Below are positions 3,530 to 62,356 of a DNA stretch of 64,000 nt, piece by piece. The position numbers and the translations under genes are program-made. The DNA lies in contig DNVR01000019.1 of NCBI GenBank assembly GCA_003507445.1, positions 76,395 to 140,394 of the forward strand, written 5' to 3'. Each line of letters starts with the position of its first letter. Position 1 is the first letter of the stretch. The stretch is from Candidatus Moraniibacteriota bacterium. GTDB lineage: Bacteria > Patescibacteriota > Minisyncoccia > Moranbacterales > GWC2-37-73. The notes under the pieces were generated by a model, which was given only the letters and a program-made list of their open reading frames with translations, ran no database searches and had not been told where the DNA came from.

Positions 3530-3622
3530 GGATTCATGTAGCATGTAGCATGTAACATGTAGCATGCAAAAACTGCATTGCATTTTTGTTATATGTTATA
3601 TGTTTTATGTTATATGATTTGT
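3527..3622. repeat. Composite heptamer-repeat cassette E1: (CATGTAGC)n - spacer - (TATGTTA)n, abutting the efp start
   Basis: catgtagcatgtagcatgtaacatgtagcatgc ... tttgttatatgttatatgttttatgttatatga. Near-identical to 4437-4542 and related to 57332-57406, 58868-58958 and 62256-62356. Confidence 0.7.
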
Positions 3623-3956: not shown

Positions 3957-4451
3957 TTAAAATGGCACGTCTTCAAGTCTTACTTCGTCCTGTTCTTCAT
4001 CAAGGTTGATGGTTGGAATTTCTTCAGCCATAGGTGTTTGTTGTTGAGCGGTTGGACGAGGTGTTGCAGCTGCTGCTCCCATTGCCATTGGCGCTGGTCT
4101 TGGTCCTGATGAACCTTGTGCGCGTTGTCCCATTTGCATATTTTCAGCCACGATGTCAGTTGTTTTTCTTTCAACTCCGTCTTTGCCAGTGTAAGAACGT
4201 GTTTCTAATCTTCCCTCAAAATATACTTCTTGCCCTTTGGTTAGATATTGTCCAGCGATTTCAGCTAGACGCCCCCAAATTACAATGTTGTGAAATTCTG
4301 ATTTCTCTTGTTTTTGTCCAGCTTTGTCATTCCAAGTTCGGTTGGTAGCGATACCAACTGTGGTCACGGTTTGACCAGAAGGAGTGGTGCGCAATTCTGG
4401 GTCTCTAGTTAAGCGTCCGATGAGTTGAACTTTGTTAAGATTCATGTTCAT
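3957..4451 (-). CDS. ssb: Single-stranded DNA-binding protein
   Basis: MNMNLNKVQLIGRLTRDPELRTTPSGQTVTTVGIATNRTW...: an OB-fold SSB with a Gly/Pro/Ala-rich linker and an acidic tail ending ...EDVPF. Confidence 0.88.
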   Translation of the reverse strand: MNMNLNKVQLIGRLTRDPELRTTPSGQTVTTVGIATNRTWNDKAGQKQEKSEFHNIVIWGRLAEIAGQYLTKGQEVYFEGRLETRSYTGKDGVERKTTDIVAENMQMGQRAQGSSGPRPAPMAMGAAAATPRPTAQQQTPMAEEIPTINLDEEQDEVRLEDVPF

Positions 4452-4542
4452 GTAGCATGTAGCATGTATCATGTAGCATCAGAAGAAAAAATCTATCTTT
4501 TGCATTTTTGTTACACGTTATATGTTTTATGTTATATGATTT
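4437..4542. repeat. Composite heptamer-repeat cassette E2 (copy of E1), between rpsF and ssb
   Basis: catgtagcatgtagcatgtatcatgtagcatc ... tttgttacacgttatatgttttatgttatatga. The ssb start codon lies inside the CATG-repeat part. Confidence 0.7.
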
Positions 4543-5103
4543 TTAAATGTTTAGCAGTTCATCAAGTTGCTTGTCGATATTTTTTGATTCTTCTTTGGCA
4601 GTTTCAACTTTTTTAACAGGAGCTGCTGGAGCTGGTGTTGTTGGTCGTTGAGTTGGTCGCTGCATTGTTGGACGTTGATTGTTGCCAGGTCTTTCAGTTC
4701 GTTGTTGTGGTCGTTGCGCAGGGCGTCCAGCATTGTTTGCAGCTTCTTTTGCTTTTCTTCGGTCTTTTGCTCCAAGTTCTGGAAGATCCTCGGTTTTTAC
4801 AATCAAGAAACGAAGAACATCATTGTTCAAATTCAATTTGTTAGTGATGGCTTGGATTCCAAATTCTTTTTCTGCGTTTGCTTCATCTGCCCAAAAATCA
4901 ATCTCGGGAAGTTCGAAGCGGCGAGTGATGTAGGTTCCTTTGTTCTGGTGTTTGATTTCATAAGCGAGTTTTCTTTTTTCGCTTAATTCTTCTCCAACCA
5001 TTGTTGCTTGCTCAAGAGCTAGAATTGCATTAACTCCTTCTTTGATCGCAGGCAGGTTTGCTTCTTGTCGTTCACCAACAAGGTAAAACAGTTCGTATTG
5101 CAT
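4543..5103 (-). CDS. rpsF: 30S ribosomal protein S6 with a basic/proline-rich C-terminal extension
   Basis: MQYELFYLVGERQEANLPAIKEGVNAILALEQ...LAYEIKHQNKGTYITRRFELP is an S6 fold. Forms the conserved rpsF-ssb-rpsR order. Confidence 0.85.
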   Translation of the reverse strand: MQYELFYLVGERQEANLPAIKEGVNAILALEQATMVGEELSEKRKLAYEIKHQNKGTYITRRFELPEIDFWADEANAEKEFGIQAITNKLNLNNDVLRFLIVKTEDLPELGAKDRRKAKEAANNAGRPAQRPQQRTERPGNNQRPTMQRPTQRPTTPAPAAPVKKVETAKEESKNIDKQLDELLNI

Positions 5104-15061: not shown

Positions 15062-15176
15062 GTTATTCCGGGCTTGACCCGGAATCTAGGTTTAGCACAT
15101 CATGCTCTATGTTGTAGTTGATTATAATTGGCTAATTAAGTGCTAGATCCTAGATTCCCACCTACGCGGGAATGAC
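15062..15176. mobile_element. GTCAT...ATGAC palindromic MITE-like element (P1 family), intergenic copy 2
   Basis: gttattccgggcttgacccggaatctaggtttagcac ... gtgctagatcctagattcccacctacgcgggaatgac. Upstream is an (ATCTACAA)3 repeat at 15010-15050. Confidence 0.55.
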
Positions 15177-15217
15177 ATAATAAAAAATATAGTTTTTTGG
15201 TGTTGATATTTTGAGAT

Positions 15218-15724: not shown

Positions 15725-17212
15725 ATGAAAAAGTCAAGATTACAGCGGAAAGTAGCTGAGCTGCCTCAAAATCCGGGGGTGTATTTTTTTCGTGATCAAG
15801 AGGGTAAGATTTTATATATTGGCAAGGCGACAAACCTTCGTTCCAGAGTTCAGTCGTATTTTCGCAATGTCATCCCGAACTCGTTTCAGGATCTAGATGA
15901 GCCTAGCGAGATGCTGAAACAAGTTCAGCATGACACAAAGGGATTCTTGAGCGTTCCTGGGCGGAGTGAATGGATTGGGTTGATGGTGGCTCAAGTTGTG
16001 GATATTGATTTTGAGCAGACGGATTCAGTTTTGGAAGCGCTGATTTTGGAAAGCAATTTAATTAAAAAATATCAGCCAAAATATAATACTCTGGAGAAAG
16101 ATGATAAATCATTTTCGTATTTTGTTGTCACTAAAGAAGAATTTCCAAAAGTTTTGATTGTGAGAAAAACAGATTTAGTTTGTCATCCCGCACTTGATGC
16201 GGGTTCCAGTCACACGCACAAATCTGGCTCAGCTCTGGATTCCCGCCTACGCGGGAATGACAAGGCCTCAAAGCCTTGTAAAAAAATACAAAATACCAAA
16301 TACCAGATACCATATACCAAGACCTTCGGTCCTTATACGAGCAAGCAACAAATGCAGACCGCGCTGAAAATTATCCGTCGCATTTTCCCGTTTCATGCTG
16401 GGAAACAAAAAACTGAAAAAGGCTGTTTGGATTTTCAAATCGGTCTTTGTCCTGGGCCGTACGCTGATGCAATTTCAAAAACTGATTATAAAAAAAATAT
16501 TCGAGGGATTGAAATGATTTTGCAGGGGAAGAAAAAAAGCTTGATTTCAAAAATGGAAAAAGAAATGCAAGTTTTTTCCAAAAAAAATGAATTTGAAAAA
16601 GCGGCAGTTCTCCGAAATAAAATTTTTGCATTGCAGCACATTCGCGATGTGGCACTGATGACAAGGGAGATGGAACATGGAGCATGGAACATGGAGCATG
16701 AAATACAAGATACAAAATACCAAATACCAAATACCAGAATCGAGGCTTATGATATCTCCAACATCTCTGGACAATATGCTGTTGGTTCAATGGTGGTTTT
16801 TGAAAATGGTATGCCGAATAAATCGCAGTATCGCAAGTTTAAAATAAAAACTGTTGATGGCAGTAATGATGTGGCGATGATGAAAGAAGTTTTGTCGCGA
16901 AGATTTAATAATGATTGGTCAATGCCAGATTTGATTTTGCTGGATGGCGGACAGGGACACGTTAATATGGCAGGGGATTTGGTGCGCGAATTAGGACTAG
17001 ATTTGTTGATTGTCGGTGTGGCTAAAGGTAAGACGCGTAAAAATCTCAATTTCCAATTTCCAATTTCCAATAAAATCCCAATGTCTCAATTTCCAAAAGA
17101 AATGCAAGAGTTTTTAAATGATAAGAATCTGGTTAAATCTATTATGGATGAGGCTCACCGCTTTGCAATTGCTTATCATCGAAAATTACGCAGTAAAAAC
17201 GCCTTAAAATAA
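15725..17212 (+). CDS. uvrC: Excinuclease ABC subunit C (GIY-YIG, UVR and RNase H-like endonuclease domains, no C-terminal HhH), carrying several in-frame repeat/MITE insertions
   Basis: GVYFFRDQEGKILYIGKATNLRSRVQSYFR (GIY-YIG), EFEKAAVLRNKIFALQ (UVR), and a DISNISGQ...LLDGGQGH endonuclease core. Inserted peptides: SFQDLDEPSEMLKQVQHD, CHPALDAGSS...DSRLRGNDK, NTKYQIPYTK, MEHGAWNMEHEIQDTKYQIPNT and NFQFPISN. Confidence 0.85.
   Translation: MKKSRLQRKVAELPQNPGVYFFRDQEGKILYIGKATNLRSRVQSYFRNVIPNSFQDLDEPSEMLKQVQHDTKGFLSVPGRSEWIGLMVAQVVDIDFEQTDSVLEALILESNLIKKYQPKYNTLEKDDKSFSYFVVTKEEFPKVLIVRKTDLVCHPALDAGSSHTHKSGSALDSRLRGNDKASKPCKKIQNTKYQIPYTKTFGPYTSKQQMQTALKIIRRIFPFHAGKQKTEKGCLDFQIGLCPGPYADAISKTDYKKNIRGIEMILQGKKKSLISKMEKEMQVFSKKNEFEKAAVLRNKIFALQHIRDVALMTREMEHGAWNMEHEIQDTKYQIPNTRIEAYDISNISGQYAVGSMVVFENGMPNKSQYRKFKIKTVDGSNDVAMMKEVLSRRFNNDWSMPDLILLDGGQGHVNMAGDLVRELGLDLLIVGVAKGKTRKNLNFQFPISNKIPMSQFPKEMQEFLNDKNLVKSIMDEAHRFAIAYHRKLRSKNALK
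15869..15934. mobile_element. P2-family palindromic MITE inserted in-frame in uvrC (66 bp)
   Basis: gtcatcccgaactcgtttcaggatctag atgagc ctagcgagatgctgaaacaagttcagcatgac. The same GCTGAAAC/GTTCAGC arms occur twice in the elp3-like gene. Confidence 0.6.
16182..16262. mobile_element. P1-family palindromic MITE inserted in-frame in uvrC (~81 bp)
   Basis: gtcatcccgcacttgatgcgggttccag ... ctggattcccgcctacgcgggaatgaca. Same termini and arms as the intergenic P1 copies. Confidence 0.6.
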
Positions 17213-19564: not shown

Positions 19565-22351
19565 ATGAAAAGAATAAACCTGTCTCTTTCTGGAATGCAC
19601 TGTGCTTCCTGTGCAATGTTGATTGAAAAAGTGCTTGCAAAAACTCCTGGTGTACAAAAAGCCAGTGTGAATTTTTCTGCAGAAAAAGTTTTGATTGATT
19701 TTGATGAAAATATAACCGATCCGCAAAAACTTATTGCTGCAATAGTTAAAGGTGGATATGGTGCTGAAGAAATTGATGCTAAAGATAGTGAATTTGAAAA
19801 GAAAAAAAGGGATCATGAGATCTCAGAATATTTTTCAAAATTTATGTTTAGCGCTTTGCTTAGTGTGCCGATGTTGTATTTTATGCTTTTGGATTTTTTT
19901 AAATGGCTTCCAGGGGAAAAAACTTTTGCGCCATACATTGGTGTGTTTTCATTGCTTTTGACAATTCCTGTGCAGTTTGTGATTGGTTCAGGCTTTTACA
20001 AGGGAATGTGGTCATCGCTAAGGATGAAGACGTTTAATATGGACAGCTTGATTGCAATTGGAACTTCGACTGCTTTTTTCTTCAGTTTGTATAACTATGT
20101 GACATATGTCATTGCTAATAATTCCTTGATCGGAGTTGGTGGTATGAAAATTCCTGATCTGTATTTTGAAACAGCAGCTTATTTGATCACATTTGTGATT
20201 CTTGGAAAATGGTTGGAAATTAGAACAAAGGGAAAGACATCTGATGCGATCAAAAAATTGATGGGGCTGCAAGCGAAAACAGCCCGCGTGATTCGTGGTG
20301 GCGAGACGCTTGATATTGCAATTGATGACGTGATTCATGGTGATATCATTATTGTTCGCCCTGGAGAAAAAGTTCCTGTTGATGGAAAAATTACCAAGGG
20401 AACATCTGCCGTGGATGAATCTATGATTACAGGAGAAAGCTTGCCAGTAGAAAAAAATATCGGAAGTATGGTTGTTGGTGGAACTATTAATAAGACAGGA
20501 AGCTTTGAGTTTGAAGCTACAAAAATTGGTTCAGAAACAACATTAGCTCAAATCATTCGCTTGATTGAAGAAGCGCAAGGATCAAAAGCACCGATTCAAA
20601 ATTTTGCCGACAGTATTTCTGCTTGGTTTGTTCCAGCTGTGATTGGAGTTGCAATTTTGACTTTCATTGTCTGGTATTTTTTCTTGGGAGCAACTTTAGC
20701 TTTTGCTTTGTTGGCATTTACTTCGGTAATTGTGATTGCATGCCCATGTGCACTTGGTTTGGCAACCCCGACATCATTAATGGTTGGAACAGGTAAGGGC
20801 GCTGAATATGGCGTGCTTGTAAAAGGTGGAGAAGCGCTTGAAGCTGCAAGCAATATTTCAGCTGTAGTCTTTGACAAGACTGGAACGCTTACCAAAGGAA
20901 AGCCTGAGGTGGTAAAAATAATTTCAAATCCTGCTTTTGATTTTGATGAGGATAAGATTTTAAAAATATCATCAAGCATTGCAAAACATTCCAATCATCC
21001 CTTGTCTCAAGCTGTTGTAAGATATGGCGAAAAACAAAATATTCAACTAGCTGATTTTGGAGATTTTCAAGAAGTCCCTGGAAAAGGAATAATTGCAAAA
21101 TGCTTAACACATAATAAGGAAATAGTTTTGGGTAATATTAGAATTCTAGAGCAAGTAGGAGTCCAAACTTCTTGGGCAAAAAATCTTCTGGAAAATGAAT
21201 CTGTAAGCGCTGGGACATTACTTTTTGTGGTGCATAATGGCGATGTTGTGGGGGCAATTTCAATTGCTGATGAAGTAAAAGAAGAATCAAAAAAAGTGGT
21301 GGCAAAACTTCAAAAAATGGGTATTGAGGTTTGGATGATTACTGGAGACAATGCGCGCACAGCAAAAGCTATTGGCTTGCAGGTTGGAATCACAAATATT
21401 TTGGCAGAAGTTTTACCAGAAGATAAAGCTAACGAAGTTAAGAAACTTCAAGCTCAAAAAATAAAAAAACATTTCCATTTGTTTGGAAATTGGAAATTAG
21501 AAATTGGAAATTCCACCCGCAGGGTGGCTATGGTTGGAGATGGAATTAATGACGCTCCTGCACTAGCTCAAGCTAATGTAGGAATCGCAATGGGATCAGG
21601 AACTGATGTGGCAATGGAGGCAGGCGACATTGTTATAATGAAAAGTGATCTGAATGATGTGGTAACTTCATTTGAACTTTCAAAAGAAACGATGGGTAAA
21701 ATAAGACAAAATATGTTTTTTGCTTTATTTTACAATGTGATTGGAATTCCAATTGCTGCTCGTGTTTTCTTTGGAATCGGCTTGGTGTTAAAACCAGAAC
21801 TAGCAGGACTTGCTATGGCGATGAGTTCTATTTCAGTAGTTGGAAATTCATTGCTTCTTAAATTATTCAAGCCTGGCAAGAGAAACTATATTTCTTTGGT
21901 TGCGCCAATTATTATGATGGTAGTTTTCACGTTCGGATTTTATGAATTTGCAAAATTCAGCAGTGGAATGGAGAATACAGTTATTAATGAGGAGCAAATA
22001 AGGGTTGAATTTAATAAATTGAATTTGAATGCCCAAATAGAAATCATAAGTGAAGAGGCTGGAGTAAAGGCATTTTATTTTACTGATGAAAATAATGTTC
22101 CAAAAGAATTGCGGGAAGAAATAAACAGCAAAAGTTTCACGCCTGAAATAATCAATGGAAAAAAATATCAGAAAGTTTATATTGGTTGGGTAGAGGCGCA
22201 GATGATGATTGAAAAAGAACTTATCCAAAAATCAGGGGACAGAGCGGATGATTTTTTTGGAAACAGTGTCATCATTGAAATCTTGCCCAAAACCAAAACC
22301 ATTCTCGACAATTTCCATTTTGTCGGAGCTGATTTTCAGATCAAGAAATAG
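19565..22351 (+). CDS. copA: Copper-translocating P-type ATPase (CopA-like) with an N-terminal HMA domain, a ~170-aa C-terminal extension, and an in-frame heptamer-repeat insertion
   Basis: [11 protein letters not shown] ([12 protein letters not shown]), DKTGTLT, and [17 protein letters not shown]. The insertion [18 protein letters not shown] (21470-21514) falls just before the GDGINDAP hinge. Confidence 0.88.
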
Positions 22352-24067: not shown

Positions 24068-26860
24068 ATGGCTTCCAAAAAAGAAACTTCGAAACAAACA
24101 AATGAGATTGTAATCAAGGGTGCGCGAGTTAATAATCTCAAAAACATCGACGTTAACATCCCGAGGGATAAGTTCGTGGTGATTACGGGACTTTCTGGCT
24201 CGGGTAAATCATCGCTGGCTTTTGACACGATTTATGCCGAAGGTAATCGTCGATATATGGAAGGCCTTTCTTCGTATGCGCGAAATTTTTTGGATCCATC
24301 AGATAAGCCTGACGTGGATAAAATTGAAAATCTTTCCCCTCCAATTTCTATTGATCAAAAAAGCATTTCTCGTTCTCCGCGATCAACTGTTGGAACACTG
24401 ACTGAGGTTTATGATTATTTGCGTATTATGTATGCAAAAATCGGAGTGCTGCATTGCCCGGAGTGTGGGACATCAATGCAAAAAAGAAGCAATCAGGAAA
24501 TTTTGGATGAAATTTTAACATTTTCTCATCACACTCAGATTGCTATTTTGGCAAAGCCGAAGGATATTGCTGTTGGAAAAGAATTATTAAAACACATTGC
24601 GCAAATGGGCTATGCTCGTGTGCGTTTTAATGGAAAAATGTTTACGGTAGCGGAAGCTATGATGCTCAGCGAAAGTGAAATTGAAACTGATATTGAAATG
24701 GTTATTGATAGAATTGTGCTCGACAAGAAAAAACCTGATGTGGAAAGAATGTTAGACTCTATTGAAACAGCGATGAAAAACGGTGGCAATTCAATGAAGA
24801 TCTTGTTTGATAATGTTGAAGAACGTAATTATAACCAAGATTTCTTTTGCAGCGAATGCGGTGTGAAAATCAAAGAAGTGACGCCGCGTCATTTTTCTTT
24901 TAATAGTCCAGAGGGTGCTTGCGACCTGTGCTCCGGTTTAGGTTACACCTTAAAAGTAAATGAAGAACTTATTATTCCCAATAAAAATCTTTCTTTAATG
25001 GAAGGTGCAATTCAGCCCTGGAGCAAATCTGGTGGAAAAATAAGTGGACAGAGTGTGCAACTTTTGACGCTTAAAGATGTTGCAAAAAAATATAAGTTTT
25101 CAATGAACGTTCCGGTTAAAAAATTAACAGCTGATCAACTCAAAATTGTTTTACATGGTAATGATGGATTTGAAGGTGTAATTCCGGCATTAGAAAAAAA
25201 ATATCAAGAAACAAAATCTGATTATGTGCGCAGTGAAATTGAAAAATATATGACCGCACACACTTGTCCATCTTGCGATGGCAAGCGTCTTAAAAAAGAA
25301 TTTTTGGCGGTGGAAGTTCAAGGAAAAACAATAGATGTGATGGTCTCAATGAGTATAACTCATCTGAGAGAATTTTTTGAGAATGTTGAAAATTGGACAC
25401 AAACAACACAAGAGAAAAGCATAGGCAAACCTATTGTGCGAGAAATTTTGCAGCGTCTTAGTGCACTTGAAAACGTGGGATTGGAATATTTAAATTTGGG
25501 ACGATCAGCTCAAACAATTTCTGGTGGGGAAGCTCAACGTATCAGACTGGCTGCGCAACTCAATTCTCAATTGATGGGAATTGTATATGTTTTGGATGAA
25601 CCTTCCATCGGACTTCATTCTCGCGACACAGAAAAACTTATTAATACTATTAAAGCCTTGCAAAACGTTGGAAATTCATTGATTGTGGTTGAACACGATG
25701 AAAGCATCATTAAAGCTGCTGACTGGATTGTTGATATGGGTCCAGGGGCAGGAGAAGAAGGCGGAATCGTCGTTTTTGAAGGTGATTATAATCAACTTAT
25801 TAAATCTAAAAATCTTACTGCACAATATATATCTAAAAAGAAAAAGGTTTCAGAAAAGAAAAAAAATAGAGCTGGAAACGGTAAATTTATTGAAATTATC
25901 GGAGCTGAAGAAAATAATTTAAAAAATGTTGATATAAAAATACCATTGGAAAAATTTGTGGTTATTTGTGGAGTTTCAGGCAGTGGAAAATCAACTTTGG
26001 TAAAAAATATTTTAGCCAAAGCATTGTCGCGACATTTTTATAACACACGAGATCTTCCTGGTAAACACAAAAAAATCAAAGGATTTGAGCATATTAAAAA
26101 GGTTATTAGTATAAATCAAAATCCAATCGGACGCACTCCACGCTCAAATGCAGCAACGTATACTGGAGTGTTCTCACACATTCGCGACCTGTTTGCTGGA
26201 GTGGAGGAAGCAAAGAACAGAAATTATACTGCTAGTCGCTTTAGTTTTAATATGAAAGGTGGGCGCTGTGAAGTGTGCCAAGGGGAAGGCTCAAAGAAAA
26301 TAGAAATGCATCTGCTTCCTGATATGTATGTGAAATGCGAAGCTTGCGGAGGAACGAGGTTTAGCAAAAAAACCTTAGAGATTGAATATAAAGGCTTTAA
26401 TGTTGCACAGATTTTGGATATGGATGTGCGCTTGGCTCTGCGTTTTTTTGCAAGGCATCCGCTTATTGCTGAAAAACTTAAAACCATGGAAGATGTTGGT
26501 CTTGGATATTTGAAGCTCGGACAAAGTGCAACAAATCTTTCTGGTGGAGAAGCTCAGCGTATTAAACTTGCCACGGAGCTTGCACGAAAATCAACAGGCA
26601 GCACTTTGTATATTTTGGATGAGCCAACTGCAGGACTTCATTTTGATGATATCAGAAAATTGTTAAGCGTTCTTAATGCCTTGGTTGATAAAGGTAATAC
26701 AGTGATTGTGGTTGAACATAATCTTGATGTTGTTCGTGATGCTGATTGGGTGATTGAACTTGGACCGGATGGTGGCGACCTTGGTGGTTATCTCACTTTT
26801 GCTGGCACACCAGATCAACTTAAAAAAGACAAGAAAAGTTGGACCGCGAAATATTTGTAG
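24068..26860 (+). CDS. uvrA: Excinuclease ABC subunit A paralog (copy 2, full length)
   Basis: [34 protein letters not shown]... Has two ABC modules and Zn-finger Cys pairs. 930 aa; the domain order matches copy 1. Confidence 0.9.
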
Positions 26861-26870
26861 AGATGTCTGT

Positions 26871-26985
26871 GTCATTCCGGACTTGATCCGGAATCCAGGA
26901 TTTAACGCACTATTTTTTCTATTATAATATTCGTAATTTAATACTTGAGATATTAATCCTGGATTCCTGCCTACGCAGGAATGAC
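26871..26985. mobile_element. GTCAT...ATGAC palindromic MITE-like element (P1 family), intergenic copy 3
   Basis: gtcattccggacttgatccggaatccaggatttaacgcac ... atcctggattcctgcctacgcaggaatgac. Confidence 0.6.
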
Positions 26986-27001
26986 AAAGAAAAAAGTAAA
27001 G

Positions 27002-27460
27002 TTATAATGATAGCAAAATAATTGCTATCACTGAAAAAATAATATCGTTCGCTGCATTTCGGAGTGTCCAGAGTCTTTCTTTTGAGTCATCTGGAAATTT
27101 GTGAACTCGTTGGTGGAATTTATATATTTTTTCTAAAAATTTGAAATTAAGTTTCCAATAGAGTACTGTTAACAAATCAGGAAACATTGAGATGAGCGCA
27201 CCTGTTATTATTGAGATGGAAATTACTGACGGTATGTTTTTGGCATAAATTGCAAAAAGAATAATCACACCGCCGACAAGAAGATCAAGAATCACTTTCC
27301 AAGTTGTATTTTTGAAAGTTGATTTTTTTCCTAAATATTCTCCGTGGCGAAAAGTATCTAAAATGTAATGAAGGGGGATCAGGACTGCTGTTAATGCTAT
27401 TGGATTGTGAATGTACTTTCCAATGGCAGCGCCGACAAGGGCGTGAGTGGTAAGGATCAT
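27002..27460 (-). CDS. Small polytopic membrane protein, possibly of the DUF457 (YdjM-like membrane-bound metal-dependent hydrolase) family
   Basis: MILTTHALVGAAIGKYIH start, three to four TM helices. Weak family assignment. Confidence 0.35.
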   Translation of the reverse strand: MILTTHALVGAAIGKYIHNPIALTAVLIPLHYILDTFRHGEYLGKKSTFKNTTWKVILDLLVGGVIILFAIYAKNIPSVISISIITGALISMFPDLLTVLYWKLNFKFLEKIYKFHQRVHKFPDDSKERLWTLRNAANDIIFSVIAIILLSL

Positions 27461-27464
27461 AGGG

Positions 27465-27600
27465 GTAAGAATTTCTAATGTCTAATTTCTAATATCTAAT
27501 AAAAAATTTAATGACAAAATGTCCAAAAGTTTCGTGCATTAGGAATTGGAAATTGATTAGAAATTGGTAATTAGGAATTAGAAATTAAAGATAAATTTAG
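27465..27600. repeat. Hairpin-forming (TTAGAAAT / AATTTCC)n repeat module in the divergent promoter region
   Basis: aatttctaatgtctaatttctaatatctaat ... attaggaattggaaattgattagaaattggtaattaggaattagaaatt (inverted halves). Confidence 0.55.
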
Positions 27601-35874: not shown

Positions 35875-36000
35875 TCAAATTTCCAATTTCAAATTTCCAA
35901 TTTCCAATAAAATCATAATGACTAAATTTTAAATGACCAAACTTGAGTTCATAATTGAAAATTTAATGAGAATTGAGAACTGAAAATTGAAAATTATGGA
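35875..36000. repeat. Hairpin-forming (AATTTCC)n / (GAAAATT)n repeat module
   Basis: aaatttccaatttcaaatttccaatttccaat ... ttgaaaatttaatgagaattgagaactgaaaattgaaaatt. Confidence 0.55.
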
Positions 36001-38064: not shown

Positions 38065-39261
38065 GTGATGTTTGAATTATTATCACAAAAAAATAATAGA
38101 CGTATTGGAAAACTGCACACTAAAAGCGGAGTTATTGAAACACCGTTTTTTATGCCGATTGCAACCAAAGGTGCAGTAAAAAATGTTTCGCCCGAGGATT
38201 TGATTGCTATTGGGGCGCAGATTGTGCTTGGAAACACTTATCATCTTTGGCTTAGGCCGGGAGATGAGCTTATTGCTAAGGCTGGTGGACTTCATAGATT
38301 TATGAATTGGGATGGCCCTATTTTGACAGACTCGGGAGGATATCAAGTTTTTTCTTTGGGTGCGCGCGCCAAGGAAAAATATGGATCAAGTGGAGTTTCA
38401 CTTGATGAAAAAGGCGTTAGTTTTGTTGATCCAACCAATGGTAGTAAACACTTTATGTCGCCAGAAAAATCCATTGATATTCAACTTAATCTTGGTAGTG
38501 ATATTGTTATGGTGCTGGATGAATGCCCACCCTTTCCTTGTTCTCACGAGGATGCAAAAAAATCTTTGGAGCTTACAACAAGGTGGGCAGCTCGTTGTTT
38601 CAAGCATTTTCATAAAAAGGTCGCTGAAAATTCGGAAAAATATGCAAAGGGCAGACCGCTTTTGTTCTGTATAGTGCAGGGAAGTATATATGAAGACTTG
38701 AGGAAAGAGAGCGTGCATCAATTGATGAATATTGAATTTTCCGCTTTGGGCGGACCAGTCTCAGGTTGGGATGGATATGCCATCGGGGGTGTGGCAGTAG
38801 GAGAGCCTAGAAAACATCTTTATGATATTTTGCAGTGGGTGGTTCCATTTTTGCCAACTGACAAACCTCGCTATTTGATGGGCCTGGGTAAACCAGAAGA
38901 ATTGGTGGCTGCAGTAGAAGCGGGAATGGATATGTTTGATTGCGTTATTCCTACACGCGAAGGAAGACATGGGCGCCTCTTCCAGTGGAAGAGAATTTCC
39001 AATTTCCAATTTCCAATTTCCAATGACAAGGAATGCGTTGATTTGCAAGGTGATTTTTATGAAACTATAAACATCAATAATGAACAATTCAAGGAAGATT
39101 TTACCCCTATAGATTCGCAGTGTGATTGTTATGCTTGTAAAAACTTCACTAAGGCTTATCTTAATCACTTGCTTAGGACTGATGAGCCATTCTTTTTGAA
39201 ACTTGCTTCGGTGCATAACCTGAGATTTTATCATAGACTAATGGAACTTCTTCGTAAATAA
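38065..39261 (+). CDS. tgt: Queuine tRNA-ribosyltransferase with an in-frame (AATTTCC)4 insertion
   Basis: TPFFMPIATKGAV, LGNTYHLWLRPG, DSGGYQVFSLG, and a C-terminal Zn site (CDCYACKNF). The inserted peptide NFQFPISN is encoded at 38994-39023. Confidence 0.9.
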   Translation: MMFELLSQKNNRRIGKLHTKSGVIETPFFMPIATKGAVKNVSPEDLIAIGAQIVLGNTYHLWLRPGDELIAKAGGLHRFMNWDGPILTDSGGYQVFSLGARAKEKYGSSGVSLDEKGVSFVDPTNGSKHFMSPEKSIDIQLNLGSDIVMVLDECPPFPCSHEDAKKSLELTTRWAARCFKHFHKKVAENSEKYAKGRPLLFCIVQGSIYEDLRKESVHQLMNIEFSALGGPVSGWDGYAIGGVAVGEPRKHLYDILQWVVPFLPTDKPRYLMGLGKPEELVAAVEAGMDMFDCVIPTREGRHGRLFQWKRISNFQFPISNDKECVDLQGDFYETININNEQFKEDFTPIDSQCDCYACKNFTKAYLNHLLRTDEPFFLKLASVHNLRFYHRLMELLRK

Positions 39262-54035: not shown

Positions 54036-55094
54036 ATGGATATTAAGAAACTGCAGCAATTTTTGCAAGAAAATAATTTGCCTAAGTTTCGTTTGGGGCA
54101 AATTCAAAAAGCCATCTTTACTGATGGCGTTTCTTCGTTTGGGGAAATAACAACACTTTCCAAGGATTTGCGAGAAAAAATGGAAAAGGAAATGCGGTTG
54201 CTTTCTTTTGATGTTGAAAAAGTTTTAGTGGCTAAGGATGGACAATCAATAAAAGCTTTGTTAAAACTTTCTGATGGAGAGTTGATTGAAACTGTTTTGA
54301 TTTCGCCTAAGCCAGAAATTTGGTCAGCTTGCATTTCTTGCCAAGTCGGCTGTGCGATGGGTTGCAGGTTTTGCGCGACTGGCAAGATGGGGTTCAAGCG
54401 TGACCTTACCGCTGAAGAAATTACTGATCAAATTTTATTTTGGAAACAATATCTTAAAAAAAATTCTTCTGCTTTGTTTGGAAATTGGAAATTGGAAATT
54501 GGAAATTGCGATGTTGATAACATCGTCTATATGGGTATGGGAGAGCCATTTAATAATTGGAAAAATGTTGCTGAGAGTATAAAAGTTTTGACTGATGAAA
54601 AGTTATTTGGATTTGGCTCACGTTCTTTGTCTGTTTCCACTTCGGGCATCGCCGACGGCATTGAAAGAATGGCTAATGAATTTCCGCAAGTTAATTTGGC
54701 AATTTCCCTTCATTTTGCGAGCGACGAAAAACGCGACCGATTTATGCCAGTCAATAAAAAAGATAATCTGGAAAATTTGCGACAAGCGCTGAAAAAATAT
54801 TTTCAAATTACAACGCGTAAAGTTTTTTTGGAGTATATTATGTTGGATGGAATAAACGACACTGCCCTTGATGCAAAGTTGCTGGCTGATTTTATATATT
54901 CAATTGGTAACACCCATCTTCTTCATATGAATCTCATTCGATACAATATGACAAGCGAGGACCTAAAGCCATCTTCAAAAACTCGCACGCAACTTTTCAA
55001 ACAAGAACTTGAAAAACACAACATTAACGCTACCATAAGAAAAAGTCTCGGCGAAGAAATCGAAGCCGCCTGCGGACAACTTGCTGGTAAGTAG
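54036..55094 (+). CDS. rlmN: 23S rRNA (adenine2503-C2)-methyltransferase RlmN (radical SAM) with an in-frame (GGAAATT)3 insertion
   Basis: CISCQVGCAMGCRFCATG (CxxxCxxC), MGMGEP, and a conserved C-terminal Cys. The inserted peptide GNWKLEIGN is encoded at 54477-54502. Confidence 0.9.
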   Translation: MDIKKLQQFLQENNLPKFRLGQIQKAIFTDGVSSFGEITTLSKDLREKMEKEMRLLSFDVEKVLVAKDGQSIKALLKLSDGELIETVLISPKPEIWSACISCQVGCAMGCRFCATGKMGFKRDLTAEEITDQILFWKQYLKKNSSALFGNWKLEIGNCDVDNIVYMGMGEPFNNWKNVAESIKVLTDEKLFGFGSRSLSVSTSGIADGIERMANEFPQVNLAISLHFASDEKRDRFMPVNKKDNLENLRQALKKYFQITTRKVFLEYIMLDGINDTALDAKLLADFIYSIGNTHLLHMNLIRYNMTSEDLKPSSKTRTQLFKQELEKHNINATIRKSLGEEIEAACGQLAGK

Positions 55095-55235: not shown

Positions 55236-55625
55236 TTAGATAACCTTAAAGTGTTTTAGGGTTGGGATGATGTTGGGTGCAAGATTTTCTGGAAGGTTAT
55301 TGAGATCTAGCCATGCGTATTCATGGACTTGTTCGTGTGGAATTATTTTTCCTGTAAAGTTAGCAAGGAAATGCACAAGGACGACATCGAAAATTTCGCC
55401 ATCCTTTTCTTTTGTTGTGTGAAACAAAAAAGGTTCAGTATTTGTGATTTTTATATTAATTCCCATTTCTTCATATGCTTCTCGAGTCGCAGTTTCAATA
55501 AGATTTTCATTTTCTTCAACTATGCCGCCACAGAATTTCCAAAAGGTATCTTTACCTGAAATGTTTAGAAGTACTTTATTATTTTCGACAATAACTGGTC
55601 CTGATGCGATAATTATTTTGTTCAT
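55236..55625 (-). CDS. NUDIX hydrolase
   Basis: GGIVEENENLIETATREAYEEMGI is a Nudix box. Confidence 0.8.
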   Translation of the reverse strand: MNKIIIASGPVIVENNKVLLNISGKDTFWKFCGGIVEENENLIETATREAYEEMGINIKITNTEPFLFHTTKEKDGEIFDVVLVHFLANFTGKIIPHEQVHEYAWLDLNNLPENLAPNIIPTLKHFKVI

Positions 55626-57331
55626 ATTTTTTTAACTAAATAAGTTTGACTTAGTTTGTATCCTTGTTTTCTGTAGTATCCTCTCACTCCCACTCCTGAA
55701 ATTACTACAATTTTTTTGAGGTCGTATTCTTCTTTGGCAATTCTTTCAGCTTCTAATAATAATTTTTTGCCAAGGCCGATGTGTTGTGGGGAAGTTGAAT
55801 CTAGCGTGTCTATTTTTGTTAGTTTTCCGTAAGTGTGAACTTCTCTAATGATGGCTGCATTTTTTAGAACTGGAAGCATATCATGAAGTTTGTCATGCTG
55901 AACTTGTTTCAGCATCTCGTTTGGCATATTGACTTTGCTGGATCCTGAAACAAGTTCAGCATGACACGTTGAACTTGGGATGCGTAGACGCAATAATGCA
56001 AACAATTTTTTCTTGTCCGGTGAAACATATTGCAGAAATATTTCCTTGCCGTCTGAGGCAGCATAATCAATGCGATCTAAAACAATTTTTTCTTTTACAA
56101 TATATCCTGCACCAACTTCACGACAACGAATGCAAGGACAATTGGACTTAGGAATAATAATTTGTCTAAGATTGGAAACTGTCGGACCGGCCACAATGGA
56201 TGGAGTAGGAACATCGCGAATAAGGCGAGCAATGCGCACATATGGCGTGATTGCTTCGTTTTTTATCTTCACTACAAGCCTCTCAAACGCTTGATTTGTC
56301 AGTGGGACATACTTTTTCTTCTTCCAGATGTCATACAGCTCACTGTTTTTTAAAACGACTGTAGGGTATATCTTGAGCATATCAGGTTGAAATCTGGGAC
56401 CTTCAAAAAGGGCCTTAAACATCTCAAAATCGCGTTTTGGGGTGCTTCCCGGAAGTCCCGGCATCATATGATAGTTTATCTTAAAACCACTATCCTTGAG
56501 CATTTTGGTAGCATCTATGGTGCTTTGGATGAGGTGTCCACGCTTGTTTAATTCGAGTACATCATCATAAAGACTTTGCACACCAAGTTCAACTCTCGTG
56601 CAACCAAGTTGACGAAAGTTCAAAATTTCTTTTTCATCAATATAATCCGGCCGCGTCTCCAAAGTGAGCCCAATAATTCTATGTTTCGCTTTTTCGTTTC
56701 TCTTTTGCTCGCGCAGTAGTTTGTCATGCTGAACTTGTTTCAGCATCTCGCCAAGCTGTTTGGCACTTCTGGATCCTGAAATGAATTCAGGATGACAACG
56801 CGGATAATCGTTGGCAGCCTTAAAGCACCCGTAAATAAATTTTTTCTGATACGCCTTTGGCAGAAAAGAAAATGTTCCACCCATCACAATTAATTCAATT
56901 TTATCTGTGCGATGACCGTTGAGCTCCAATGAGCGCAAGCGGTTTTGAACTTGTCTATATGGATCAAACTGAGAATCAATTGCGCGCATCACAGCTGGTT
57001 CATTGGAGAGATAACTCTTAGGCATATCTTTCTCACTAGGACAATAAATGCATTTACCGGGGCAGGGATATGACTTGGTAAGCACTGCCACCACAGCCAC
57101 ACCGGATTGGGTGCGAATCAAGCGACTCATCAAGGCTTCTTCAAATTTTTCACTGCGTTTGATTTTCTTTTGCTCAACTAATTTATTATATCTATCTCGC
57201 AAATCAGCATTGGTAGGCATTGCAACTCCGAATTTTTTACAAAGACTTTTTTTGAGTTTGCCAAAATCTCCCTGATTTTCAGAAAGTTCGTTTATTGCGG
57301 AGATTATATAATTGTCGTAAGATTGGCTCAT
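55622..57331 (-). CDS. Elp3-like radical SAM/GNAT protein (tRNA wobble-uridine modification family) carrying two in-frame P2-MITE insertions
   Basis: CPGKCIYCP radical-SAM cluster and C-terminal GNAT motifs (HIGLGKKLLLEAERIA). Insertion peptides ...EMLKQVQHDKLL... and ...TCHAELVSGSS...EMLKQVQHDKLHDM... Start moved to 57331 out of the repeat. Confidence 0.75.
   Translation of the reverse strand: MSQSYDNYIISAINELSENQGDFGKLKKSLCKKFGVAMPTNADLRDRYNKLVEQKKIKRSEKFEEALMSRLIRTQSGVAVVAVLTKSYPCPGKCIYCPSEKDMPKSYLSNEPAVMRAIDSQFDPYRQVQNRLRSLELNGHRTDKIELIVMGGTFSFLPKAYQKKFIYGCFKAANDYPRCHPEFISGSRSAKQLGEMLKQVQHDKLLREQKRNEKAKHRIIGLTLETRPDYIDEKEILNFRQLGCTRVELGVQSLYDDVLELNKRGHLIQSTIDATKMLKDSGFKINYHMMPGLPGSTPKRDFEMFKALFEGPRFQPDMLKIYPTVVLKNSELYDIWKKKKYVPLTNQAFERLVVKIKNEAITPYVRIARLIRDVPTPSIVAGPTVSNLRQIIIPKSNCPCIRCREVGAGYIVKEKIVLDRIDYAASDGKEIFLQYVSPDKKKLFALLRLRIPSSTCHAELVSGSSKVNMPNEMLKQVQHDKLHDMLPVLKNAAIIREVHTYGKLTKIDTLDSTSPQHIGLGKKLLLEAERIAKEEYDLKKIVVISGVGVRGYYRKQGYKLSQTYLVKKI
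55892..55966. mobile_element. P2-family palindromic MITE inserted in-frame in the elp3-like gene (copy 1)
   Basis: gtcatgctgaacttgtttcagcatctcg ... gatcctgaaacaagttcagcatgac. Confidence 0.6.
56723..56797. mobile_element. P2-family palindromic MITE inserted in-frame in the elp3-like gene (copy 2)
   Basis: gtcatgctgaacttgtttcagcatctcg ... gatcctgaaatgaattcaggatgac. Confidence 0.6.
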
Positions 57332-57406
57332 GAAACATGAAACATGTAGCATGTAACAAAAAAGCTTTTTAATTCAGATTTGTTATATGTTGTATGTTAT
57401 ATGATA
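57332..57406. repeat. Composite heptamer-repeat cassette E3 in the divergent elp3/methyltransferase promoter region
   Basis: catgaaacatgaaacatgtagcatgtaac ... tttgttatatgttgtatgttatatgatatatg. Confidence 0.65.
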
Positions 57407-57407
57407 T

Positions 57408-58106
57408 ATGAAAATTGAAACTGCTAATAAAATTTTACAGGAGACTGAGCTGGGTTACGATCTGATTTCTAAGAAATTTTCCGAGACCCGGAAGCATTTT
57501 TGGCGTGGGCTGGAGTTCATAAAGGATTATACGCACAGCGGCGATAATGTTTTGGATTATGGCTGTGGCAATGGCCGCCTTTTGGAATTGTTGGCTGATA
57601 AAAATATAAATTATCAGGGAGTTGATGTTTCCCAGAAGCTCGTTGACCTTGCCAAAAGCAAATATACTGGAGAAAATATTGAGTTTTCCAAAATAAGCTC
57701 CAGTCAAATTAGCTTAGCATTTGAGACGGGATTTTTCAATACCGTTTATAGCATTGCGGTTTTTCATCATTTTCCTTCAAAAAAATATCGCGAGGATGTG
57801 GCAAGAGAACTTTATGAAAAAACAAAAGACGGTGGGTATATTGTGGTAACGGTTTGGTTTCTTTGGCAAAAAAAATATTTGAAAAATATTTTACAAAATT
57901 GGATTAATAAAATAAAAGGGAATAGCGCATTGGATTGGAATGATTGTTCAATTTCTTTTACGGATAACTCTGGAGCGCGGGTTGAAAGATTTCACCATGC
58001 CTTCACAAAGAGAGAACTGAAAAAACTTTTTGAACTAGTGGGGTTTAAAACAGAAAAATGTGAAGTTGTTGATGGAAGAAATATTTTGTACATAGGAAAA
58101 AAATAG
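57408..58106 (+). CDS. Class I SAM-dependent methyltransferase
   Basis: VLDYGCGNGRL is methyltransferase motif I. Confidence 0.75.
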   Translation: MKIETANKILQETELGYDLISKKFSETRKHFWRGLEFIKDYTHSGDNVLDYGCGNGRLLELLADKNINYQGVDVSQKLVDLAKSKYTGENIEFSKISSSQISLAFETGFFNTVYSIAVFHHFPSKKYREDVARELYEKTKDGGYIVVTVWFLWQKKYLKNILQNWINKIKGNSALDWNDCSISFTDNSGARVERFHHAFTKRELKKLFELVGFKTEKCEVVDGRNILYIGKK

Positions 58107-58867: not shown

Positions 58868-58958
58868 CAGACGTATAACATAAAATATAAAACATGGAGC
58901 ATGGAACATGGAGCAAGAATTTTTGATCCAATGATCTATGCTGTATGATCCATGATTC
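58868..58958. repeat. Composite heptamer-repeat cassette E4 upstream of trxB
   Basis: gtataacataaaatataaaacatggagcatggaacatggagc ... atgatctatgctgtatgatccatgattcatg, abutting the trxB ATG. Confidence 0.65.
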
Positions 58959-60467: not shown

Positions 60468-60543
60468 GGGCCGGTAGCTCACCTGGTAGAGCGCCTCACT
60501 TGCACTGAGGAGGTAGCGGGTTCAAGTCCTGTCCGGTCCACCA
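60468..60543 (+). tRNA. tRNA-Ala (anticodon TGC), CCA encoded
   Basis: GGGCCGGTAGCTCACCTGGTAGAGCGCCTCACTTGCACTGAGGAGGTAGCGGGTTCAAGTCCTGTCCGGTCCACCA. Cloverleaf folds with the G3:U70 alanine identity pair. Confidence 0.9.
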
Positions 60544-60622: not shown

Positions 60623-60696
60623 GGGCTTATAGCTCAGCTGGTTAGAGCGCGTCACTGATAATGACGAGGTCTCAAGTTCGAATCTTGATAAGCCCA
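60623..60696 (+). tRNA. tRNA-Ile (anticodon GAT)
   Basis: GGGCTTATAGCTCAGCTGGTTAGAGCGCGTCACTGATAATGACGAGGTCTCAAGTTCGAATCTTGATAAGCCCA. Good cloverleaf; no encoded CCA. Confidence 0.9.
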
Positions 60697-60738
60697 CAGT
60701 TTTTTTATAAAATATTTTGCAGTAAAAAGGAGGCAGAA

Positions 60739-61143
60739 ATGATTTTCTTGGGCGTAGGAAGAGAATTATTGGAAGAGATAGGTATTGATGATAACTTCAG
60801 CTTGTTATTTTTAAAGGCCGGCATTGAGCTTGATTATTTCAGACTTAAAAAAAGTACTGACTTTCAAAATCGTGATAAGGTCTTGAGATTTATCTCTGCT
60901 GTTGTTCATAAAGATGCTCCCGAACTCGTAGATCCTTTCGTGGTTGTTTTCTTCAAGAAATCTTTACAGGTAGCCGGATATCTATCGAAGAGGGCTAGAT
61001 ACGTCATTGATTTATGTAATGATGTTGATGTTGTAAAAAAACAACTGGAAAAAATTGGCGAGTTGGATGATGAAAGCCTGAGAAAATTGATCAGGCTCAT
61101 GGCTATATTTTCAATGAATGCTGCAAATATTGAAAGAGGATAA
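60739..61143 (+). CDS. Hypothetical protein
   Basis: Perfect SD (aaaaggaggcagaa ATG). 135 aa: MIFLGVGRELLEEIGIDDNFSLLFLKAG... The ORF-track start at 60661 would overlap tRNA-Ile, so the start was moved. Confidence 0.5.
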   Translation: MIFLGVGRELLEEIGIDDNFSLLFLKAGIELDYFRLKKSTDFQNRDKVLRFISAVVHKDAPELVDPFVVVFFKKSLQVAGYLSKRARYVIDLCNDVDVVKKQLEKIGELDDESLRKLIRLMAIFSMNAANIERG

Positions 61144-61357
61144 TCTTTGTTGTTTCAATGTATTTTGACCCGTCGATGGTGGCGGGTCTTTAATTTGACA
61201 AAAAACCGCAGATAATGTACACTTTAAATAAAGAAAGCCCCAGGGGCTTTTTAAAAAACCTTAAAATCATATAGCATATAGCATATAGCATATAGCAAAA
61301 ATACCAATAAAGTTGCTGTTTGCCTAAAATTGTTACATGTTACATGTTACATGTTAA

Positions 61358-61543
61358 ATGAATAGTATTATACAGTTTTTCCTTGAAGCTAAGGCAGAAA
61401 TGCTGAAAGTGAATTGGCCAACAAAGAAGCAAACAGTGAATTATACATTGCTTGTGGTCGCAGTTAGTTTGGTTGTTGCAGGATTTCTTGGAGGATTGGA
61501 CTGGATTTTTAGTTACATCTTGAAGACATTTATCATAAAGTAA
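61358..61543 (+). CDS. secE: Preprotein translocase subunit SecE
   Basis: 61 aa. KVNWPTKKQTVNYTLLVVAVSLVVAGFLGGLDWIF. Located upstream of nusG. Confidence 0.8.
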   Translation: MNSIIQFFLEAKAEMLKVNWPTKKQTVNYTLLVVAVSLVVAGFLGGLDWIFSYILKTFIIK

Positions 61544-61707: not shown

Positions 61708-62253
61708 ATGGCGAAACAGACACAACATCATGGGCGAGCTTGGTATGTGATTCACACATACTCTGGCTATGAAGACAATGTTACTCGAAATTTGAAGCAG
61801 CGTATTGAATCAATGGATATGCAAGACTTGATCTTCGATGTAATGGTGCCAAAGGAAAACAAGATTAAAATTAAGAATGGAAAAAGAACTGTTATTGAAG
61901 AACGAATTTACCCAGGATACGTATTGGTAAATATGGTGGTGACTGATGCATCTTGGTATGTTGTTCGAAACACGCCGAACGTGACTGGATTTATTGGGCT
62001 TGGAACAACACCAACGCCAGTTGATCCAAAGGAAATAGAAATGCTTAAAAAGAGAATGGGTGTTTCTGAACCAAAATACAAGATTGATCTTAAAAATGGT
62101 GATGCAGTTAAAATCAACGAAGGACCATTTAAAGATTTTGATGGAAAGGTTCAAGAATTTGATGAAGAGAAAGGTAAAGTTAAAGTGTTGGTTACAATTT
62201 TCGGACGTGAAACACCAGTTGAATTGGATTTCTTGCAGATTACTAAAATATAA
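61708..62253 (+). CDS. nusG: Transcription termination/antitermination factor NusG
   Basis: WYVIHTYSGYEDNV (NGN domain) and a C-terminal KOW (GDAVKINEGPFKDFDGKVQEFD). Confidence 0.9.
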   Translation: MAKQTQHHGRAWYVIHTYSGYEDNVTRNLKQRIESMDMQDLIFDVMVPKENKIKIKNGKRTVIEERIYPGYVLVNMVVTDASWYVVRNTPNVTGFIGLGTTPTPVDPKEIEMLKKRMGVSEPKYKIDLKNGDAVKINEGPFKDFDGKVQEFDEEKGKVKVLVTIFGRETPVELDFLQITKI

Positions 62254-62255
62254 AT

Positions 62256-62356
62256 TCATATAACATACAACATAGAACATAGAACAAGGGAATTCAGTAC
62301 TGCACGCTTCTGGCATATCTGCTCCATGTTCCATGCTCCATGTTCCATGAAGCATT
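62256..62356. repeat. Composite heptamer-repeat cassette E5 upstream of rplK
   Basis: catataacatacaacatagaacatagaaca ... ctccatgttccatgctccatgttccatgaagcatt, directly before the rplK ATG. Confidence 0.65.

Follow-up and report, generated by a model that had tools for sequence, protein, structure and literature searches.

How can the gene of a conserved tRNA-modifying enzyme harbor two palindromic repeats within its reading frame? This question is raised by an Elp3-like gene in a stretch of 64,000 nucleotides from a Candidatus Moraniibacteriota bacterium (assembly GCA_003507445.1, contig DNVR01000019.1, positions 76,395 to 140,394), which is referred to below as the window. [quoted passage not shown] Both sequences were found where they had been placed; they leave the frame intact and comprise 25 codons each. 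In our analysis, the locus is very probably a functional Moranbacteria Elp3 gene that has twice acquired a short palindromic repeat, which is non-autonomous and belongs to the CGTC/TGTC class of repetitive extragenic palindromes (REPs). Judged by their architecture, the inserts belong to the CGTC/TGTC-tagged REP superfamily. The coordinates of all elements are listed in Table 1.

A single ORF on the minus strand spans the region, and its product is a full-length Elp3, a radical S-adenosylmethionine (SAM)/acetyltransferase protein of the tRNA U34 cm5-modification class. The earlier description of the gene as Elp3-like, with radical-SAM and Gcn5-related N-acetyltransferase (GNAT) parts, was borne out. 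In a phmmer search against PDB sequences, Elp3 of Methanocaldococcus infernus (6ia8) and Elp3 of Dehalococcoides mccartyi were matched with E = 4e-111 and E = 6e-108, respectively. The Pfam domains Radical_SAM (E = 1.7e-17) and Radical_SAM_C were present. The Pfam domain Acetyltransf gave no match to the ORF at E ≤ 0.01 and was likewise missing from the precomputed Pfam listings of the homologues; residues 493-568 aligned with the lysine acetyltransferase (KAT) domain of M. infernus Elp3 (E = 5e-14). In an alignment of 44 homologous sequences, the Fe-S motif CxxxCxxC (C90-x3-C94-x2-C97), the acetyl-CoA motif QxxGxG (Q516-H-I-G519-L-G521), and the Cys triad C398/C400/C403 of the Zn-binding linker were invariant. 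The Zn-binding triad in the central linker, the acetyl-CoA motif, and the blocking loop considered below have been described as features of Elp3 (Lin et al., 2019; PMC6367351). An AlphaFold2 model of the protein (mean predicted local distance difference test score, pLDDT, of 77; predicted TM-score, pTM, of 0.78) matched Elp3 crystal structures in Foldseek with E = 1e-42 and target-normalised TM-scores of 0.87-0.89. With the solved enzymes of D. mccartyi and M. infernus (5L7J, 6IA8; Lin et al., 2019) the Moranbacteria protein shares the two-domain organization of radical-SAM and KAT domains, the Fe-S motif, the Cys triad of the linker, and the acetyl-CoA motif, at a sequence identity of about 39%.

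Elp3 has been called rare among bacteria in general (PMC6367351), and the initial annotation had considered a bacterial homolog uncommon. This does not apply to the lineage studied here. Since 7996 of the 8000 scored candidate homologues reached E ≤ 1e-10, Elp3 is routine in this lineage. All top matches bearing a source name were proteins of Moranbacteria or Parcubacteria metagenome-assembled genomes (MAGs), and Elp3 loci were recovered from 80 genome assemblies. The gene order trxB-trx-csoR-like-methyltransferase-Elp3-NUDIX-rlmN was kept in one relative.

Each of the two inserts extends from TGT to GAC over exactly 25 codons without breaking the reading frame; the element spans of 76 nt given in Table 1 also count the flanking T and A. 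The inserts are located at nt 535-610 (site 1) and nt 1366-1441 (site 2) of the gene. Their peptides are CHPEFISGSRSAKQLGEMLKQVQHD (residues 179-203) and CHAELVSGSSKVNMPNEMLKQVQHD (residues 456-480); KL comes next in both cases, which corresponds to the predicted MLKQVQHDKL-type peptides. The two copies were 81% identical over 80 nt (55887-55966 versus 56718-56797), and the arms of the site-2 copy were 96% complementary over 26 nt. The 27-nt arm occurred four times in the window with up to 3 mismatches, compared to no occurrence in 100 dinucleotide shuffles. The calculated RNA folding energy was -30.7 kcal/mol for the site-1 element (z = -4.95) and -40.6 kcal/mol for the site-2 element (z = -10.3).

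Alignment with archaeal and bacterial Elp3, proposed as a check in the initial annotation, showed that the two segments are not part of the conserved protein. The alignments to the solved structures break at query residues 176-203 and 459-492, and that of M. infernus Elp3 resumes about 4 residues further on at site 1 and about 7 residues further on at site 2; the solved enzymes thus differ from the Moranbacteria protein in having merely a few residues at both insertion sites. In the AlphaFold2 model, insert 1 is placed between helices 159-175 and 204-212 of the radical-SAM domain and insert 2 between the KAT strands 443-451 and 492-500, one strand upstream of where the acetyl-CoA blocking loop lies; these flanking helices and strands are predicted confidently. 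Modelling of the protein with its inserts, also suggested earlier, yielded five segments with a pLDDT below 50, two of which coincide with the inserts (residues 180-202 and 458-479). The other three are the Fe-S loop (90-112), the blocking loop (503-518), and a short segment at 70-75. A location of insert 2 inside the blocking loop was considered and rejected, since this loop (MinElp3 466-486) maps to query residues ~499-519. In summary, the Elp3 inserts are in-frame, loop-located, lineage-specific insertions and not conserved Elp3 sequence.

We scanned the window generically for termini consisting of an 8-bp stem with a 3-8-nt loop, the stem ending in AT and being followed by GAC. Thirteen such termini were found, compared to 0.68 in shuffled sequences, and they belong to seven elements: Elp3 and uvrC contain two each, and intergenic DNA contains two dimers and a single unit. 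All of these elements folded more stably than shuffled controls, with z values from -4.8 to -10.3, and an Rfam scan of the whole window returned only two tRNAs and no match at the elements. The distance from a stop codon to the intergenic dimer that follows it is about 10-17 nt, and one of the two dimers lies between convergent genes; such a position is typical of REPs. The first uvrC copy does encode EMLKQVQHD, as had been noted, but it does not have the opposite orientation ascribed to it: the copy is inverted on the genome, but uvrC lies on the opposite strand to Elp3, and relative to the host gene the orientation is the same. Consequently, the peptide common to uvrC and Elp3 results from the same arm being read in the same direction and not, as had been supposed, from palindromy; the second arm specifies another peptide, CHPEFISGS.

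Table 1. Elp3 gene, tagged REP elements of the window, and GTAG-tagged palindromes of related loci. Positions refer to the window unless a related locus (L) is named.
Feature	Position	Strand	Remarks
Elp3 gene	55622-57331	minus	569 aa from ATG 57331; stop codon counted in
TGTC-tagged REP dimer no. 1 (site 1)	56722-56797	minus	76 nt; encodes C179-D203, radical-SAM domain loop
REP unit	56722-56746		TGTC + hairpin ATGCTGAA-CTTGT-TTCAGCAT; gene strand of arm encodes MLKQVQHD
REP unit	56773-56797		hairpin ATCCTGAA-ATGAA-TTCAGGAT + GACA; CCA tail after hairpin on gene strand
TGTC-tagged REP dimer no. 2 (site 2)	55891-55966	minus	76 nt; encodes C456-D480
REP unit	55891-55915		TGTC + ATGCTGAA-CTTGT-TTCAGCAT
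REP unit	55942-55966		ATCCTGAA-ACAAG-TTCAGCAT + GACA; one stem mismatch
REP dimer of the same family as the Elp3 copies	15868-15935	plus	68 nt; in frame in uvrC (15725-17212); encodes VIPNSFQDLDEPSEMLKQVQHD, including EMLKQVQHD
TGTC-tagged REP heterodimer, different stems	16181-16262	plus	in frame in uvrC; encodes CHPALDAGSSHTHKSGSALDSRLRGND
Intergenic TGTC-tagged REP heterodimer	2842-2963		~10 nt downstream of efp stop (efp 2972-3583, minus)
Intergenic TGTC-tagged REP heterodimer	26870-26986		between convergent ORFs, 10 nt past stop of 24068-26860 (plus) and 16 nt past stop of 27002-27460 (minus)
Single TGTC-type REP unit	15154-15177	plus	ATTCCCAC-CTAC-GCGGGAAT + GACA; intergenic, upstream of uvrC
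GTAG-tagged perfect 28-nt palindromes, GTAGAGACGC-N8-GCGTCTCTAC	L201 2036-2063; L007 10569-10596		in frame at Elp3 site 1
GTAG-tagged perfect 28-nt palindrome, GTAGAGACGC-N8-GCGTCTCTAC	L036 11330-11357		in frame at Elp3 site 2
GTAG-tagged perfect 28-nt palindrome, GTAGAGACGC-N8-GCGTCTCTAC	L035 18598-18625

Whether the elements belong to the REP superfamily was judged by architecture, following the text of Di Nocera et al. (2013; PMC3733652). There, CGTC REPs are described as carrying a 4-nt unpaired tag, CGTC or in many repeats TGTC (or CCTC), followed by an 8-9-bp stem whose first two pairs are A-T, a loop of 4-5 nt of few sequence types, and a short, unpaired tail, mostly CCA. They occur mostly as inverted homo- and heterodimers with spacers of 20-100 bp, mainly extragenic near the 3′ ends of ORFs, and no dedicated transposase is known for them. 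For comparison, we assembled a census of 20 dimers from the window and 80 related genomes. The tag before the stem was TGTC in 19 of the 20 dimers and CGTC in the remaining one, and GACA followed the partner stem in all of them; put differently, the base before GTCAT is T in 19 cases, and that after ATGAC is A in all 20. The stems of all 13 window termini comprise 8 bp with at most one mismatch, and 12 have the form AT......AT, the exception at 16182-16205 beginning with AA. The loops consist of 4 nt (CTAC, CTCC) or 5 nt (ACAAG, TCAAG, CTAAA, ATGAA). A CCA tail was found at one hairpin of each Elp3 copy (TTCAGGAT-CCA), at both hairpins of the intergenic dimers (GGAAT-CCA), and at one hairpin of the second uvrC copy; at the other Elp3 arm CTC stands in its place. 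The 20 dimers are inverted pairs with an overall length of 56-203 nt and a spacer of at least 20 nt (24 nt in the Elp3 dimers). The stem types TTCCTGC, TTCCGGA, TCCTGAA, TGCTGAA, and TCCCGCA each pair, the tag being constant, and heterodimers and chimeras with unrelated stems under the same TGTC tag occur as well as single units.

The window elements therefore match the published class, as far as the available text describes it, in the tag, the 8-bp stem opening with A-T, the 4-5-nt loop, the CCA tail, the arrangement as inverted dimers, and the position after ORFs. The likeness extends to the host genes. According to the same text, intragenic CGTC-REP dimers encode 20-30 amino acids, some ORFs carry two inserts, and frequent hosts are DNA-repair genes (uvrA/B/C, recBCD) and tRNA-modification genes, a pattern matched by two inserts in Elp3 (tRNA modification) and two in uvrC. 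Differences concern the tag, which is nearly always TGTC in the window and not CGTC, and the host. The repeats have been reported from five phyla, mostly Alphaproteobacteria, with the families CGTC-1 to -4, and the available text names no lineage of the Candidate Phyla Radiation (CPR) among the hosts, whereas the window belongs to a CPR bacterium.

The 5 nt on either side of the 20 dimers contain no direct repeat that might represent a target-site duplication. When 10 small ORFs of the window were scanned with Pfam, efp, ssb, rpsF, a methylase, recO, PAP2, nusG, and rplA were identified and no transposase. In about 2 Mb of related DNA, the ORFs enclosed by inverted REP heads at distances of 0.4-2.2 kb proved to be ordinary genes. 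A shallow search for an ORF resembling a REP-associated tyrosine transposase (RAYT) found none among the small window ORFs or the bracketed ORFs of the related DNA.

Of the six frames of each of the three CTGAA-type coding copies in the window, only that of the host gene is free of stops, because TGA is contained in CTGAA and in ATGAC and closes the others. Since these copies are open in the host frame only, the in-frame pattern is a survivorship filter and not the property of an intrinsically codable element. A metal site formed by the CH...HD ends was considered and rejected as unnecessary, as the stop codons in the other frames explain the frame preference.

Both inserts are absent from the proteins P0002 and P0003, which are 83-84% identical to the query over the whole protein (95% over core columns in the case of P0003); the archaeal and Dehalococcoides structures lack the inserts as well. 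The locus L001, which comes from a different species and has 83% nucleotide identity, carries the same repeat family in frame at both sites. In L009 (72% amino-acid identity), the family occupies site 1 alone, and the spacer there is 18 nt shorter. Between the query and L001, the arms were 85-100% identical, compared to 64% for third codon positions of the host gene and to 79% and 33% for the spacers of site 1 and site 2, respectively. In the right stem of site 2, the two differ by a compensatory pair, G...C versus C...G (ATGCTGAA/TTCAGCAT versus ATCCTGAA/TTCAGGAT). Since the arms are kept with compensatory stem changes while the spacer drifts, the comparison points to a constraint at the level of the hairpin, or to homogenisation or replacement by other genomic copies, and not to selection on the peptide.

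Across the family, both sites are hypervariable, with different repeats in different lineages. At site 2, CH-headed inserts of several stem types were found in 23 of 120 homologues and untagged hairpins in others. At site 1, insert-free alleles contain short tandem repeats or GTAG-tagged perfect palindromes. As such GTAG palindromes occur at both Elp3 sites in related Moranbacteria, both tagged-REP superfamilies use the same loops. In P0003/L201, the closest allele without the inserts, site 1 holds a GTAG palindrome and site 2 has different flanks.

Parsimony on a neighbour-joining (NJ) tree required 20 changes at site 2, close to the 21.4 obtained with randomly shuffled tips, and the claim of many independent insertions was dropped. 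The nearest neighbour of a carrier was also a carrier in 13 of 23 cases, compared to a background of 19%. REP-bearing site-2 alleles always have the flank KL(Y/H)-x-LP(V/A)L and never the flank HF(I/L)xAL. Compared with L201, the closest relative without the inserts, nucleotide identity is about 0.9 over the length of the gene but 0.5-0.8 within about 100 nt of each insert, the dips being located at gene nt ~450-630 and ~1200-1450 (window ~56700-56880 and ~55880-56130). The local identity dips and the constant flank of the REP-bearing alleles suggest that loop alleles were exchanged by recombination. Based on the enrichment among nearest neighbours and the flank association, the history of the sites is probably one of inheritance, decay, and, again probably, loop-allele exchange; the data are also compatible with repeated insertion. 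An example of decay might be site 2 of L072 (11348-11371; TGT|GGGAATGACAAA), which looks like an internally deleted remnant.

In the explanation that we favor, the unit consists of the 4-nt TGTC tag, an 8-bp stem beginning with an A-T pair, and a 5-nt loop, and two inverted units around a 24-nt spacer form a 76-nt dimer similar to a REPIN (REP doublet forming a hairpin). Such elements reside mostly just downstream of genes, where their role is probably that of RNA or DNA hairpins, as the literature suggests. Copies landing in an essential gene would persist only if they were in frame, stop-free, and in a permissive surface loop, and both Elp3 copies are in frame, stop-free, and in loops. Each of them is presumably translated as a 25-residue, probably disordered loop extension (CH...HD) at a hypervariable site; the Fe-S, SAM, Zn-linker, and acetyl-CoA motifs remain untouched. 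By analogy to RAYT/IS200-type systems, mobility might depend on an enzyme that recognises the hairpin and the tag and acts without target-site duplication.

Several points weigh against this explanation. The superfamily assignment was made by architecture, on the tag, stem, loop, tail, and inverted dimer arrangement. That the inserts are translated and that the Elp3 is active is our inference. The conservation of the arms could reflect recent independent insertion or gene conversion instead of constraint. Finally, no truly empty orthologous site was found, as the nearest insert-free alleles have other flanking residues and, at site 1, other repeats; the exact insertion boundaries and the absence of target-site duplications are therefore deduced from the flanks alone.

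The same observations bear on other explanations. If the inserts were classical MITEs, as the initial annotation proposed, they would be deletion derivatives of insertion sequences (IS) with DDE-type transposases, moved via their terminal inverted repeats and generating target-site duplications. The extensive complementarity of the site-2 arms would suit such an origin, as would the fact that the elements are short, multi-copy, and non-coding by themselves. However, only an invariant T...A and no direct repeat borders the 20 dimers, and neither the small window ORFs that were scanned nor the ORFs between paired copies in the ~2 Mb of related DNA included an IS or a transposase. Each end is a module of tag and hairpin that folds on itself; such modules also occur singly, as heterodimers, and as chimeras of unrelated stems with the same TGTC tag, and this fits tagged REPs. 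We therefore did not retain the MITE classification and consider it very unlikely. That the segments are removed before the mature protein is formed, like an intron or intein or by translational bypass, is hardly credible, even if hairpins with z values down to -10.3 could in principle be processed by RNases. Excision would make compatibility with frame and stop codons needless, yet all Elp3 and uvrC copies keep the frame of the host, the CTGAA-type copies are open in this frame only, and dozens of homologues with other inserts at the same sites are in frame, too. Moreover, an intein would need far more than 25 residues, Rfam matched neither an intron nor a ribozyme, and RNase cutting of a hairpin in the mRNA would destroy the message instead of splicing it.

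By exaptation, the hairpins could act within the coding region in translational pausing, mRNA stabilisation, or as a hotspot of recombination or insertion, or the CH...HD peptides could lend these loops a function, and the recurrence at two sites would then have been selected. Conservation of the arms clearly exceeds the synonymous rate and includes a compensatory stem change, the same two loops hold different REP types in many lineages (the 23 of 120 homologues at site 2; the GTAG type in L201, L007, and L036), and L001 retains both inserts. Against this stand close relatives that do without either insert, spacers and peptides that are not conserved (the site-2 spacer being 33% identical), and the predicted disorder of the loops. 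The preference for the CH...HD frame is accounted for by the stops in the other frames, and the recurrence can also be explained by permissive loops and allele exchange, as indicated by the constant KLY-x-LPVL flank and the local identity dips. We regard exaptation as highly improbable. A broader proposal, which seems merely unlikely to us, is that tagged REP hairpins of Moranbacteria, of the TGTC as well as the GTAG type, are guided again and again to a small, recurring set of protein loops or swapped among them, and that their arms are kept by a function inside the mRNA or DNA of essential genes. For instance, translation might pause between folding units, the mRNA might be locally stabilised, or loop alleles might be shuffled among lineages at recombination hotspots. 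If true, this would amount to a systematic generator of loop diversity in ultra-small genomes.

Two known systems are close to the tagged REP insertions favored here. The Rickettsia palindromic elements (RPEs; Ogata et al., 2000, via PMC10969869 and PMC3733652) are likewise in-frame palindromic repeats in unrelated housekeeping genes, apparently compatible with fold and function, and according to the available text RPE-4 and RPE-6 are CGTC-class REPs (PMC3733652). As far as these sources describe them, the classic RPE-1 has about 150 bp and a conserved peptide, whereas the coding elements of Moranbacteria have 56-82 bp and are conserved only at the peptide ends encoded by the arms; the RPE host is an obligate intracellular alphaproteobacterium and not a CPR bacterium. 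REPINs moved by RAYT transposases (Bertels and Rainey, 2011; PMC3116915) are similarly multi-copy, non-autonomous, and free of target-site duplications. In contrast to the TGTC-tagged Moranbacteria elements, they have a GTAG tag and a single-copy RAYT gene flanked by REPs. Our literature search found no earlier account of MITEs, REPs, RAYTs, or palindromic intragenic repeats in CPR/Patescibacteria. Intragenic CGTC/TGTC REP dimers are thus a known phenomenon in Rickettsia and other bacteria, and the CPR instance is new as far as the searchable literature shows.

The Elp3 inserts extend the in-frame insertion of "selfish hairpins", known from RPEs and intragenic REPs, to the CPR, whose genomes are tiny and streamlined and in which repeats inside essential genes are unexpected. 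Variation in protein length at particular loops of CPR proteins can derive from repeats instead of function. In annotations, alignments, and trees, the peptides CH...HD, LDPES..., and LKQVQHD and the DNA signature TGTCAT...ATGACA can serve as flags for such cases. The two permissive Elp3 loops are natural sites that tolerate insertions of 25 residues and may aid protein engineering. Existing knowledge on the chemistry of Elp3 and the movement of REPs is left unchanged.

Beyond the window, the exact 25-nt arm was present in at least 120 metagenome contigs, some of which may come from outside the CPR. Among the metagenome matches listed, 114 of 128 elements (89%) lie outside long ORFs and 14 (11%) within open frames of 450 nt or more; most members of the arm family are therefore extragenic, and a minority lie in genes. 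Dimers in coding sequence are short (56-82 nt in the first census and 57-82 nt in that of the metagenomes), and non-coding dimers reach about 200 nt with AT-rich centres that contain stops. In L168 (4361-4714), an ORF that resembles a DUF59/SUF-type Fe-S assembly protein begins with codons from a copy of the arm (MLKQVQHDK...). In L028 (10775-10831), a 2934-nt ORF contains a chimeric REP dimer, its two sides being a TCCGG-type and a CTGAA-type hairpin.

The uvrC product has 495 aa, which is short for UvrC. Besides its two REP dimers, the gene contains in-frame stretches of heptamer repeats at 16667-16699 (MEHGAWNMEHE) and 17040-17092 (NLNFQFPISNKIPMSQF). Two large paralogues (12042-14936 and 24068-26860; 964 and 930 aa) with repeated motifs like those of ABC ATPases resemble two uvrA-type genes; they show as direct-repeat families of four copies, and neither carries a tagged REP.

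The start of the Elp3 gene adjoins another kind of repeat. The database protein P0001 (576 aa), which is named Elp3 by NCBI and is present identically in public MAGs, starts at ATG 57352. As homologues align from its second methionine (MNxxYDNYIISA...) at 57331, the latter is the likelier start codon and the annotated start is probably 7 codons too long. The 7 extra codons (57331-57352) lie inside an arm of a heptamer-repeat hairpin. Intergenic hairpins of this kind were found at 57322-57428, 3525-3635, and 61258-61375, their arms being different heptamer tandem repeats, e.g., (CATGTAG)n with (GTTATAT)n, and relatives at 4447-4551, 58884-58916, and 62253-62355. Because the arms pair through G.U, the hairpins fold well only as plus-strand RNA (z = -3.8, -6.5, and -2.65 for the plus strand versus -0.56, -0.02, and -0.09 for the minus strand, respectively). 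One of them extends over both the start codon of Elp3 and, at 57408, the beginning of the divergent methyltransferase gene, and the one at 3525-3635 is antisense to both adjoining genes. Heptamer repeats of the type (AATTTCC)n/(GGAAATT)n are present in both orientations at 17040-17092, 21463-21512, 27537-27586, 35877-35929, 38993-39045, and 54458-54507, one of them inside an rlmN-like ORF (54036-55094), where it encodes GNWKLEIGN. Repeats of these types also occupy Elp3 site 1 of insert-free homologues, e.g., in L005 and L072. The two tRNA genes of the window are located at 60468-60540 and 60623-60696. The ORF 60661-61143 overlaps the second one, so that its 5′ part is probably spurious; it is also without a Pfam match.

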